This document shows, in pieces, positions 24,548 through 32,323 of a stretch of DNA of 64,000 bases (the first letter of the stretch is position 1; each line of letters opens with the position of its first letter). The position numbers and the translations under genes are program-made. The stretch lies in NCBI RefSeq assembly GCF_003334385.1, contig NZ_QOWN01000026.1, one strand, 5' to 3'. The DNA comes from Escherichia coli (GTDB lineage Bacteria; Pseudomonadota; Gammaproteobacteria; Enterobacterales; Enterobacteriaceae). The notes beneath the pieces are model-generated. The model worked only from the letters and a program-made list of their open reading frames with translations. It was not told the origin of the DNA and made no database searches.

Positions 24548-24671
24548 ATCATGATTGGACGGTGTAAGGACAACACCAACAAAAACAGGAAGTTAGAAGT
24601 CTCAGCAAAACACCGACCAGACGGTGAGGAGACATAAAAGGATACGCAAAGGAGCCGCGGCTCCTGGTAAC

Positions 24672-24702
24672 ATGAAAGCCCACAGATGTGGGCTTTTTCG
24701 TT
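24672..24702. terminator. Terminator hairpin between ssrA and the 3' end of ypjA
   Basis: Palindrome AAAGCCCACA-GA-TGTGGGCTTTTT just before the ypjA stop at 24708. Confidence 0.7.
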
Positions 24703-24707
24703 GATGG

Positions 24708-27700
24708 TCAGAACGACCAGTTCACACCAGCTACCGCGTTCCACGGGGATTCCACACCGGCACTATGGCTATACCCCACCCCAAGATGCCCGCTTAACGT
24801 ACTGCTGAATGAGGCTTTAATACCTGCCTGGTATATTCCACGTCTGCCCGACAAATAATTGACGAAATTACCGTCACTATTCACTTTCACCCGGTTATCA
24901 TCGACAAATTCTTTGCGCACAGCCGCCTTCAGCCACGGCTCAACTTCCATACCGTTCCCCAGACGCATGTTGTAACTCAGCGTTGCGCCCAGTTCACGAT
25001 ATATACTGCGGGTATCGACTGATTTCGATTTCATGCCATTGGATAAATGATATTCGGGGTTATCAGCGGTGAACCCCGTTAACGATGCATACGGCGTCAG
25101 GTTCCAGTTACCATCGGTAAATCGCATCCCGGTTTCAATGTGACCGCCCAGCCCGTTGCTGTGGTAACTGCCATTGGCGGCTCCACCGCTGCTCATTTTA
25201 CCTGCTACGTTACTTTTAAAACGGTTCAGCTTCACGACACCGTCCAGATAGAAACCACTTTCATGTTCCCAACTGGCATAGCCGCCCAGAGAATAACTGC
25301 CCACACTGCCATGTCCTCCGCGATCAAAACCGATATGTGAATGGGAATAGCCCATAAAAGCGCCTAGCGTGGTAATTCCTTCAGGAATATCATTACGGCT
25401 GTCGATCCCCACTGTCATTCCGGTCAGCGTCTGCTCAAACCCGGCACCCGCATCGGTGGTGACATTATTACGGGTGTTATACGTCGCCCCCCAGACATTA
25501 TTGTTGTGTGGACTCGCTTTCATTATGTTCAACCGCTCGCGAATACTGTTTAGCTCAGCATCAAATACCAACGGTAATGTTGCTGCCATATTGAGTACGG
25601 CTGCCGTAGAAGGCGTAATGCGTTTCTCCGGAACGGGTGTCGGCGTTGGATCGGGAGTAGGGTCTGGTTTTGGATTTGGGTCTGGCTTTGGATCGGGTTT
25701 TGGGTCTGGCTTTGGATTTGGGATGGGGTCCGGGTTGGGTTTGACATCATTGGTCAGGTTCCAGTTGCTGTTGCCGTCACTTTTCAGGACATACTCATAG
25801 GTCCCAAGATCAACGAAACCGCCGGTATTGCCCAGCGTAAACGAAGCATCCCCTCCCCCTGTTTTCACCAGCGTCATCGCGTCGTCAGACTGTGGGCTGA
25901 CGCCGGTATCCTGAACAAAGATTTTAAAATTACCAGTGGCGTTGTTGTTGACGACCAGTTGATCGCCCCGGGAGCCTGCAACGTTGGTATGCAGGTAGAA
26001 ATTACCGCTACCGGAAAGTTCATTGGTTGTCAGCGTATTGTAGATACCGTTAGTTGTGGCAGGCGCTGCTGTTTGTGCTGACAAATAAACATCACCGTCG
26101 TTGAGTAGCAAACTGTTTACTCTATATTCGCAGTTGCTGGTACCTGCACAGGAATTATTGCTGTTAAGCCAGACACTGCCCCGGCTGGCAGCCGTCAGGT
26201 CGGCAAGCGTGGTATCGACGCCATTTCCCAGAGTCAATGTCGCGCTATCGGTAATCCGGACCGCCCCTTCGAGTTTAACTGGCGTAACATTATCCCGTGG
26301 CGTCATTAACGACAGGCTTCCTGTCGCGCCACTGACCGATGCATCCGCCAGCGTACCTGCGTAGACGATTGCCGTACCGCCAGCGACCTGGAGATCTTCT
26401 GCCCGGGCCAGAGCCTGAAACTCATCTTTTGACCGCCCAAGGGTATATTGCCCGCCAGAGTTAACCTTTGTGGCGGAGTCCTGACCCAGGTTTTGCATTG
26501 CCCCACCCTTGCCAACCGTGGAGTCGCGAGCTTCGGTACCTGCTAATACCAATAAATTACCGCCATTTTCCAGCAACATATTGGTCGCTAAATTGCCGGA
26601 AATGGAAAAAGTACCGTACTGGTGAGTACCGCTGATTTCAATACCGTTAGCCGTGCTCGTCTGGAGAGCGGCACCGCTGTTCTGGACGATATCTGTCGCT
26701 TTGCCATTATCGTTGACTGTCAGCGTACCGCCTTCATTGATCTTTGTTTTTATTGCCTCTCCGTTAGCTGAAACTGTTTGTATTCCGCCGTCGTTAATTG
26801 TTGTCTCATTCGCCACACCCTCGACAATTTGTTCACCGCCGGTGAGCGTCGTGCCTGTCGCAGTGGCTTTTGTTTTGACGATCTCCCGTCCGCCCATATT
26901 GACCTGTGTTTTGTCAGAAGAGGTGTCTGACTCCACGGTTAACACGCCGCCATTTGCCAGCAGGATATTGTTCGCCGCACCCTGCTCGATGCTGAACGCG
27001 ACGCCATCCGCGCGTGTTCCTGTGACCCGCGTCGCCCTGGTGGTTGCAACCAAAGCGCCCTGGCTACTCTGCTGTATCCCCGTTGCGCTGCCTTTCTCCC
27101 GCACATCGAGTGTGCCGCCGTCATTAAGCACCGAGTTTTCAGCCAGACCGCCCTCATTAACTACCTGTGAACCCCCATTAATAATGGAACCTTCCGCTGT
27201 CCCGTTTGCCATAATTTGTTGTAGGCCAGAGACGATATCGGTATTGATTGCCTTACCATAATTCTGAACGGTTTGCGTGCCACCATTGATGTGTGTTTTC
27301 TCTGTTGACCCACCATCAACAATTTGTTCACCACTTTCGATATTTGCTTCAGTGGCTAAACCATATACCGTTTGCTTGCCACCTTTGATATTTGCTTTAT
27401 CAGAAGTGGCACTGGCATATATTGTTTGGGTGCCAGCACTATTGAGTACAGTGCCAACATCTTTTCCATAAACATCCATTTTGCCGTTGGCATTAATAAT
27501 CGTGTCAACTGCGCGGGAACCAGTGACGACTGTTAATGAGCCAGCATTTTCCAGCACTACATTTTTAGCTTCTGAATTCCTGATGTAGAAAGCATCACCA
27601 TAACTGTTGGTTCCTTCGATAAGTGTTCCGGAGGTCGTGGAAGCAATTAATGCGCCGCCGGATTGTTGCTCAACATGCTTAGCCTCACCACCGTCCTGAA

Positions 27701-31090: not shown

Positions 31091-31573
31091 CTATTCATTT
31101 CTTTTAGCGCATTCAAAAAACTGATCGGCATTATTTTTATTCGATAATTTTTTAGTTTCAGAAAACACATTTTCATTGTTTTCTAGCTTTAGTTTAATGA
31201 GAAGATTTTCCCAGACCTGCTTGCTTAAACATATTACGTCAGGCTCACCAGAACTAACTAACTCGTGATTATTATTAAAGTGTACGTTGAATACCTTTAA
31301 GTTATTTTCACCAACTTCATATTTAATACGTTTTAATTGTTCTCCAGCTCCCATAATGACAAAGGCGTTGCCTTCTTGATATATACATTCAGACATCATT
31401 TTTTGTAAAGTTTCAAGAGCACCGCGATACGTCTCTGATGCAGCTTCCTTACAAATTAATTTTAAAATACTATGAGCTAGTAGCTCCATGTGTTTAGAAG
31501 ATTTATTTTCATTATAACTTCCACTACCCAAAACTGCGCTAGCGTTAAATCCGTTGCTTTTACTAACTAACAT
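31091..31573 (-). CDS. Uncharacterised small protein (no recognisable domain)
   Basis: 160-aa ORF, AT-rich, co-oriented and 100 bp upstream of the ypjB-like gene; no signal peptide or TM segment evident. Confidence 0.5.
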   Translation of the reverse strand: MLVSKSNGFNASAVLGSGSYNENKSSKHMELLAHSILKLICKEAASETYRGALETLQKMMSECIYQEGNAFVIMGAGEQLKRIKYEVGENNLKVFNVHFNNNHELVSSGEPDVICLSKQVWENLLIKLKLENNENVFSETKKLSNKNNADQFFECAKRNE

Positions 31574-32087
31574 TGTCTATTCCTCAATTAATGTCTACAT
31601 GGCTATTTTTAATGTTATTACTGTTTGTCACTATAAAAAAACGCTCATTTGAGACAATTACTGACATTAACTGCTTCACTTGCTACGCATGGAACTTTTA
31701 ATTAAATTAGCACAGGAATGTTAAATTTAATAAACAAAAGGTTATTTCGCTGTATGATAAAAAAAACCGTTATAATTTATTAGTGAAAATCGTTTTTCAA
31801 GTGTTAGAAATTTATATCTCAATAGCGTTGGTTAATGAGCATAGCCACGCTCCTGTAACGCTCACAAAACTCATCTGCCTGCGGCGGGTGTTCTGGTCAG
31901 TAGTAGATGTTTAAGGCGTGGCAGAGACATTTCATCCTTACTCTACGGCATTGTTCTACATACATTGGTTGTGGTACTCACTTATCATCAGTGAGCGAAC
32001 AGAGAATAGTTCAGTGATTTGAGTAATTAACCTGATTAAATGAAGGGGTATAATAAATGATAATACTCTGGCTTTATCGTTAATTAC

Positions 32088-32300
32088 TTAATTCCACATG
32101 TAAGCAATTTGCCCGCTTGGCATAGCAGGCATTTTTTCCAGGTACTTTTGAATGAGTACTGATGGATAAATACATTGCAGTGGCGTGCCACGTACCAAAA
32201 CACCAGCCCTCATTCGAAACCACCCACCGCACTTCTTCCTTGAAATGGCGTTAGTCATGAAATATAGACCGCCATCGAGTACCCCTTGTACCCTTAACTC
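32088..32300 (-). pseudogene. Remnant of a P4-type tyrosine integrase N-terminus next to the tRNA 3' end
   Basis: Minus-strand translation LDGGLYFMTNAISRKKCGGWFRMRAGVLVRGTPLQCIYPSV resembles the integrase N-terminal arm domain (DGGGLYL...W.FRYR...YP.VSL); truncated after about 70 codons. Confidence 0.45.
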
Positions 32301-32323
32301 TTCCTGATACGTAAATAATGATT

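Follow-up and report, generated by a model that had tools for sequence, protein, structure and literature searches.

The window analysed here, a stretch of 64,000 nucleotides (nt) of Escherichia coli DNA to which all coordinates refer, carries the transfer-messenger RNA (tmRNA) gene ssrA, the transfer RNA (tRNA) gene ileY and, around the latter, a block of accessory genes that ends before glaH. The state of the ssrA 3' end, used as attachment site by prophage CP4-57 in E. coli K-12, was analysed together with the extent and origin of this block. RNA genes were called by ARAGORN and Rfam, and the Rfam scan of 20-38 kb returned no family besides tmRNA and tRNA; the other features were compared with the annotations of K-12 and of the Prokaryotic Genome Annotation Pipeline (PGAP) (Table 1). 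In agreement with a preliminary description made from the sequence itself, the 3' ends of ssrA and ileY point toward each other across 7,776 bp (about 7.8 kb had been given), and the stop codon of ypjA is situated 160 bp past ssrA, the distance estimated there.

Table 1. Features of the ssrA-glaH region of the window
Feature	Position	Strand	Basis and remarks
ssrA (tmRNA)	24185-24547	+	ARAGORN; Rfam RF00023, 295.8 bits; intact, wild type, T357 at 24541
attB core (CP4-57, other P4-type integrases), unoccupied	24534-24547	+	ssrA 3' end; corresponds to the K-12 psaA duplicate
ssrA-distal spacer with terminator hairpin	24548-24698	.	Core sequence, common to Escherichia genomes without the island
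Presence/absence unit, 10,649 bp, 42.2% GC	24699-35347	.	ypjA, IS3 and pinH fragments, ypjCB, ileY, ygaQ
ypjA/ehaD autotransporter adhesin pseudogene	24708-29288	-	Nonsense codon 28593-28595
pinH, internal serine DNA invertase fragment	29630-29866	-	Pfam PF00239; PHROG 125; K-12 and PGAP annotation
IS3-family transposase fragment	29796-29936	-	NF033516, E=0.033; DNA match 29858-29936; weak
ypjCB (K-12 ypjC + ypjB)	30200-31573	-	457-codon frame, in-frame stop 31091-31093; function unknown; NCBIfam NF050179
AT-rich non-coding spacer, 750 bp, 3' side of ileY	31574-32323	.	
ileY, tRNA-Ile2, CAU anticodon, AUA decoder	32324-32399	-	ARAGORN; Rfam tRNA, 73.8 bits; K-12 identity
ygaQ alpha-amylase-family pseudogene	32959-35211	+	Three in-frame stops; 37% GC; AUA-rich; K-12 and PGAP annotation
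glaH (csiD), first core gene right of the variable block	35547-36524	+	Annotation

The ssrA attachment site

In K-12 MG1655, CP4-57 occupies 22,031 bp between ssrA and ypjA (2755941-2777971 in the K-12 annotation) and is followed by psaA, a 14-bp repeat of ssrA, and 160 bp further on by ypjA. The preliminary description had placed a prophage of roughly 22 kb here in K-12 and noted its absence from the window; alignment to MG1655 bore this out on both sides, since the K-12 junction holds CP4-57 and that of the window is empty. Here the intact 3' end of ssrA is fused straight to the sequence flanking attR in K-12, the junction being CTCCACCA followed directly by ATCATGATTGGACGG, or, in the longer form compared with K-12 attL and attR, ...CCGCCAGCTCCACCA followed by ATCATGATTGGACGG. 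No second copy of the ssrA 3' end was found in the window, where its last 23 nt occur once and are matched elsewhere only by chance-level 16-mers with three mismatches, and tblastn with IntA and two further P4-type integrases gave no match. These are the features of an unoccupied attB.

On either side of the site the window follows K-12 closely. Positions 1-24548 showed 99.976% identity with six mismatches, and positions 24525-36562 were collinear with the sequence to the right of CP4-57 (MG1655 2777964-2790000), with 99.884% identity over 12,039 bp and 11 single-nucleotide polymorphisms (SNPs) outside the att region, with which the alignment starts on the left. CP4-57 is thus the sole large difference from K-12 in the region, and 17 SNPs in total were counted across 36.6 kb. 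The best database matches of the window were wild isolates. Because of these matches and the 17 SNPs a laboratory derivative of K-12 is disfavoured, and the source strain is most probably a natural E. coli of phylogroup A and a very close relative of K-12.

The frequency of the empty site was determined over 5,426 complete E. coli genomes. A junction-specific query of 551 bp was used for this count; queries of 9-13.6 kb score K-12-like occupied genomes as at least 80% covered and were therefore not used for occupancy. The empty ssrA-ypjA junction was present in 1,386 genomes. The prophage-free site emphasized in the preliminary description is accordingly empty in relation to K-12 but not unusual in the species. 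The locus is the annotated K-12 region minus CP4-57, a common configuration that is already known.

An empty site could also be left by precise excision of CP4-57, spontaneous or engineered, in a K-12-type ancestor. The identity to K-12 of at least 99.9% on either side of the site would be expected in this case, and low-frequency excision of CP4-57 is known (PMC10107115). However, excision in K-12 leaves an ssrA without T357 (CGCCAGC-CCACCA), by which tmRNA is inactivated (PMC10107115), whereas the window has CGCCAGCTCCACCA, including the T at 24541 that corresponds to ssrA nucleotide 357 and is missing from the K-12 attR/psaA copy. The 17 SNPs, and the identical empty junction in genomes as diverse as the 1,386 counted above, also speak against excision, which is regarded as highly improbable. 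Since T357 is kept, 17 SNPs separate the window from K-12 and the best matches are wild isolates, we infer that the ssrA 3' end is a native, never-occupied attB and not a cleanly excised one. The strain would then possess a native and functional ssrA with a free attachment site, unlike CP4-57-cured K-12, which loses tmRNA activity.

Gene content and extent of the accessory block

The interval between the two RNA genes had been described as a decayed accessory segment. Decayed genes with atypical GC content and codon usage were indeed found, but the decay is not specific to this strain, the locus being that of K-12 at 99.88% identity: every lesion except the ypjA stop is common to K-12 and already annotated there. 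In ypjA, the plus strand has A at 28595 where K-12 has G, and the resulting stop was seen in the translation; in SCU-104, a strain of 99.9% identity, PGAP likewise flags ypjA with an 'internal stop'. The composition of ypjA is mosaic, with 51-54% GC in the 3' part encoding the C-terminal region and 43-45% in the 5' passenger-repeat part, where AUA codons are also more frequent (26.5 per 1000 in the codons upstream of the nonsense site).

A 40-codon hypothetical open reading frame (ORF) was listed by PGAP between ypjA and the fragment of an insertion sequence (IS) of the IS3 family. The invertase fragment noticed in the preliminary description was confirmed as pinH, which aligned to positions 48-103 of the 145 positions of Pfam PF00239 Resolvase (E=3.3e-9) and to PHROG 125 DNA invertase (E=5.2e-15), and which is annotated as a pseudogene in K-12 and as a partial recombinase by PGAP. 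Both the N and C termini are missing, and the complete catalytic domain and C-terminal helix-turn-helix of Pin/Hin/Gin serine invertases were not found; pinH is an internal fragment and not a functional member of the serine DNA invertases. Adjoining its truncated end is a transposase scrap of about 45 amino acids (aa) or 80 bp, of which a six-frame piece matched NF033516 (transpos_IS3) at E=0.033 and the DNA showed 92.5% identity to an annotated IS3-family transposase. A short scrap is therefore present where an IS3-like fragment had been proposed, but its IS3-family identity, the fragment being short, is weakly supported by these two matches. Transposase ORFs and terminal inverted repeats of an IS3 insertion sequence were not detected, and the repeat search gave no IS ends. 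The two unknown genes of the preliminary description are present as ypjB and ypjC, but they are really one gene, YpjCB, split by a stop: both translate as a single frame with one stop (PGAP 'internal stop'), with YpjC covering positions 1-160 (E=1e-93) and YpjB positions 218-465 (E=3e-168) of the NF050179 profile.

The segment had further been called AT-rich. This holds for the right two thirds, from about 27.2 kb, but not for the 2.7 kb adjoining ssrA: GC content was 52.1% in 24548-27250, 44.9% in 27251-30000 and 35.1% in 30001-32323, so that the interval is not uniformly AT-rich. Low GC (36.6%) and rare codons also continue past ileY through ygaQ to about 35.35 kb. Over the whole stretch from 27.2 to 35.4 kb GC content was 35-45%, versus approximately 50-52% in the flanks, and AUA codons reached 12-27 per 1000 in ypjA, ypjB, ypjC and ygaQ, versus mostly 0-5 in the flanking genes. 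For ygaQ the value was 26.6 per 1000, and its stops lie at codons 111, 346 and 614. The profile is thus atypical, as the preliminary description had supposed, and not uniformly core-like. The same profile speaks against a segment boundary at ileY, and the tRNA gene lies inside 24699-35347.

The true boundaries could be located by comparison with genomes that do not have the block. In many E. coli genomes ssrA is separated from glaH by only about 680 bp. When strain Z247 was aligned, the shared flanks stopped at 24698 and restarted at 35348, with an unrelated filler of 333 bp between them. The spacer 24548-24698 is approximately 91-92% identical to B2-type E. coli Z247, Escherichia sp. E1V33 and E. 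whittamii, and in all three a filler of 333-431 bp replaces 24699-35347 with the same breakpoints. This filler has no homology to the block. Its copies in B2-type E. coli, Escherichia sp. E1V33, E. whittamii and one more Escherichia contig (L013) are about 85-90% conserved, and neither a credible Rfam family nor a convincing ORF was found in it. In the relatives compared it lies at L005:2801-3133, L010:9449-9802, L011:9426-9856 and L013:1356-1896. On the other side of the block, conservation of the roughly 146 bp preceding glaH extends as far as Citrobacter and Salmonella.

From the common filler and breakpoints, therefore, the unit comprises 24699-35347 with ileY and ygaQ inside. Among the 5,426 genomes the ypjA-to-glaH block was largely present, with any ssrA occupant, in about 2,560-2,590, ileY with both flanks in 2,901 and the short ssrA-filler-glaH allele in 1,100, while the remaining genomes carry different occupants or IS-mediated deletions. 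The unit therefore shows two traits of a genomic island, namely an atypical composition (GC 35-45%, raised AUA use) and a strain-variable presence, being absent or replaced in many genomes. A core tRNA marking the edge was not found, ileY being missing with both flanks in the short-allele genomes. That the accessory block reaches 35347 and contains ileY is, together with the native state of the ssrA site deduced from T357, a small addition of the present work.

ARAGORN labelled this tRNA 'Met'; it shows no difference from K-12 ileY, and PGAP and K-12 annotate it as tRNA-Ile. The same mislabelling was noted earlier for strain Crooks (PMC3032704). K-12 has only two tRNA genes that decode AUA, and one of them is thus situated in strain-variable DNA; the ileY locus is missing from roughly 45% of complete E. 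coli genomes. In about 2,400 complete genomes the sole match to the ileY query was a tRNA of 96-97% identity elsewhere on the chromosome, presumably ileX, and a tRNA-Ile(CAU) of 87% identity occurs on a few plasmids. From these matches it would follow that the dosage of AUA decoders varies between strains and can be plasmid-borne. The variability of ileY bears on rare-codon supply and on the choice of this gene as a site for integration or engineering.

Origin of the block

Both RNA genes are classic integrase targets, as the preliminary description had stated: CP4-57 and other elements are integrated at ssrA, and phage 186 and SpLE1-like elements at ileY (PMC3448106, PMC3032704, PMC8767318). 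The 7.8-kb interval could hence represent one or more discrete islands between two facing att sites, built by integrases acting at ssrA and at ileY, with ileY as a core gene at the edge. In addition to the documented use of both sites, other genomes in which the same interval is occupied are in favour of this explanation. In E. coli 20AR0354 a truncated P2/186-like prophage fills the whole ssrA-to-ileY interval (L004:9248-15122), and in strain 504239 the 3' ends of ssrA and ileY are the exact limits of a 46-kb mosaic island (L088:8900-9080, L089), and a variant sequence stands in place of the 3' arm of ileY. These two cases give partial support to the idea that the facing att sites frame a replaceable cassette. 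The unrelated genes to the left of ileY in E. albertii are also consistent with it.

The remnant in 20AR0354 encodes ogr, late control D, tail genes and a replication endonuclease; ypjA-ypjCB are deleted and 46 bp of the ileY-proximal spacer are left. At ssrA the 504239 island has the remnant of a P4-type integrase; it further comprises IS elements, a type I restriction-modification system, genes of an integrative and conjugative element, a cyclic oligonucleotide-based antiphage signalling system (CBASS) and a CP4-like end with Ag43/YeeU-CbtA. In its ileY the T-arm and the acceptor 3' strand are swapped for variant sequence, and the tRNA side is the non-integrase end of the island, an unusual geometry that may have arisen by rearrangement between CP4-like islands. 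Among other occupants, a BL21-type strain carries an integrase, a recombinase, ParB and IS1 in the interval, and another genome an integrase and a two-component-like pair followed by IS3.

In the window itself no trace of such integrases was detected. An integrase remnant had been proposed in the preliminary description, but Pfam, NCBIfam and PHROGs searches of all frames and tblastn with three P4-type integrases revealed no tyrosine-integrase remnant next to either RNA gene, including the ileY-side spacer 31574-32323, where a genomic island would be expected to have its integrase. Of the 5,426 genomes, 3,114 contain this spacer, and no annotated feature lies under it; distant blastn matches in the same genomes likewise covered no annotated integrase. 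An 80-aa frame beside ileY, which by eye resembles the arm-binding N-terminus of a P4 integrase (DGGLYF...W.FR...YPSV), was rejected: it had no Pfam match at E<=10, no NCBIfam or PHROG match, and no tblastn match with K-12 IntA or two ssrA-linked integrases.

Att-like repeats were sought with the last 16-23 nt of ssrA and ileY, allowing up to three mismatches, and by a general search for direct and inverted repeats over 24-36 kb. The repeats of the RNA gene ends suggested in the preliminary description did not appear: neither 3' end is repeated in the interval, only chance-level matches being found outside it, there is no direct repeat of the ileY 3' end at the distal boundary, and the general search returned the internal repeats of the ypjA passenger domain. 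The absence of an integrase remnant by either RNA gene and of a partial att repeat in the interval argues against discrete islands bounded by ileY, as do the low GC and AUA-rich coding that run past ileY through ygaQ. Moreover, 1,100 E. coli genomes and other Escherichia lineages lack ileY and ygaQ as well as ypjA-ypjCB, the breakpoints being 24698 and 35348. On this balance the bounded-island explanation is doubtful.

A different origin would be given if the block belonged to the ancestral core, its AT-richness being nothing more than a compositional trait, and had been deleted from the genomes now without it. E. albertii has ileY-ygaQ-glaH in the same place and shares the right-hand boundary, at about 35403, which is in line with ancestry. 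However, the E. albertii copy shows only 67-75% DNA identity and 60% protein identity for YgaQ, against 93.7% for the adjoining glaH. The filler allele is unrelated to the block and is conserved at about 85-90% in four lineages, which would not be expected from independent deletions, and the GC content and codon usage of the block are strongly atypical. Ancestral core DNA is consequently considered unlikely, and a xenologous replacement is plausible.

In E. albertii NBRC 107761 (L012:6599-9409), an intact ygaQ homologue of 747 aa is located in AT-rich DNA directly upstream of glaH. The ancestral YgaQ alpha-amylase-family protein could be modelled on this intact copy. The E. albertii ileY is diverged by several substitutions, including a compensatory acceptor-stem pair, and NCBIfam gave no matches for the genes to the left of it.

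It can be suggested, tentatively, that the ssrA-glaH insert 24699-35347 is an old mobile or recombinationally exchanged Escherichia module, whose cargo includes ileY as an acquired 'helper' tRNA, and that block and filler are two ancient alleles. If this were true, ileY would not be a core tRNA targeted by islands, but would belong to AUA-rich foreign DNA bound by Hha/H-NS, and the block and the filler of about 330-430 bp would be alleles maintained or exchanged across Escherichia species. Binding of Hha near ileY and CP4-57 has been described (PMC2408971).

The explanation that fits best overall, and that is held to be very probable, is a never-occupied attB beside an old, largely inactivated accessory block of K-12. 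This block is a low-GC, AUA-rich insert of 10.65 kb, bordered by the ssrA terminator on one side and by the promoter region of glaH on the other; it is a presence/absence polymorphism within Escherichia and may have been built by repeated insertion and IS- or mutation-driven decay. Such a history had been proposed in the preliminary description; the decayed accessory genes and the atypical GC and codon usage agree with it, but the insertions can only be deduced, as can the mode of arrival of the block, because integrase and flanking direct repeats are lacking.

Some points weigh against a never-occupied site beside an old inserted block. The conclusion of a never-occupied site holds only if every excision resolves in the way published for K-12. 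The 10.65-kb block has no surviving mobility signature in the form of an integrase or flanking direct repeats, and its polymorphism could mean either that the block was gained or that it was lost to the filler allele. The arrangement in E. albertii would agree with an old module inherited from an ancestor, but also with one acquired independently.

To the right of the block, GlaH of Pseudocitrobacter spp. (L009, L015, L008) and the E. coli protein share 95-98% identity, with about 92% DNA identity over glaH-lhgO, and Citrobacter and Salmonella are more distant (79-83% DNA identity). This suggests that the glaH-lhgO-gab cluster may have been laterally exchanged with Pseudocitrobacter. No ssrA or tRNA was found within 10 kb upstream of glaH in the Pseudocitrobacter genomes.

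Comparison with known systems

The closest known counterpart is the K-12 MG1655 locus ypjA-pinH-ypjB-ypjC-ileY-ygaQ-glaH (b2647-b2659), with which the window shares the gene order, the pinH fragment, the ypjC/ypjB split and the ygaQ pseudogene. It differs by the additional ypjA nonsense SNP (28595) and in having neither CP4-57 nor attR (psaA). With regard to CP4-57, the exact target is present in the window, consisting of the ssrA 3' end and the K-12 attR flank; the prophage, intA and the psaA duplicate are not, and unlike the CP4-57 excision product the window ssrA keeps T357.

For laboratory strains, ssrA has been catalogued among the sites of variable elements (PMC3032704). Elements linked to it, such as WpLE1, Ssra*B, CrpLE2 and P2-like and Shiga toxin (Stx) phages, share this hot spot and correspond to the alternative occupants observed in other genomes, whereas the site of the window is empty. 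At the opposite end of the interval, ileY is a documented attB-bearing tRNA, as ileY/ileX are used by phage 186 (PMC3448106) and by SpLE1-like elements (PMC8767318), and in strains W and B ileY was reportedly lost through IS-mediated deletions (PMC3032704). In contrast to tRNA genes occupied by such elements, the window ileY has nothing integrated, is identical to that of K-12 and shows no repeat of its 3' end. No feature of the window deviates from these published descriptions.

Like the classical tRNA-linked pathogenicity islands, the block of the window is low in GC, rich in rare codons, strain-variable and marked by IS and recombinase scraps. It differs from them in having no integrase and no flanking direct repeats, and in carrying its tRNA gene inside the unit and not at the edge.

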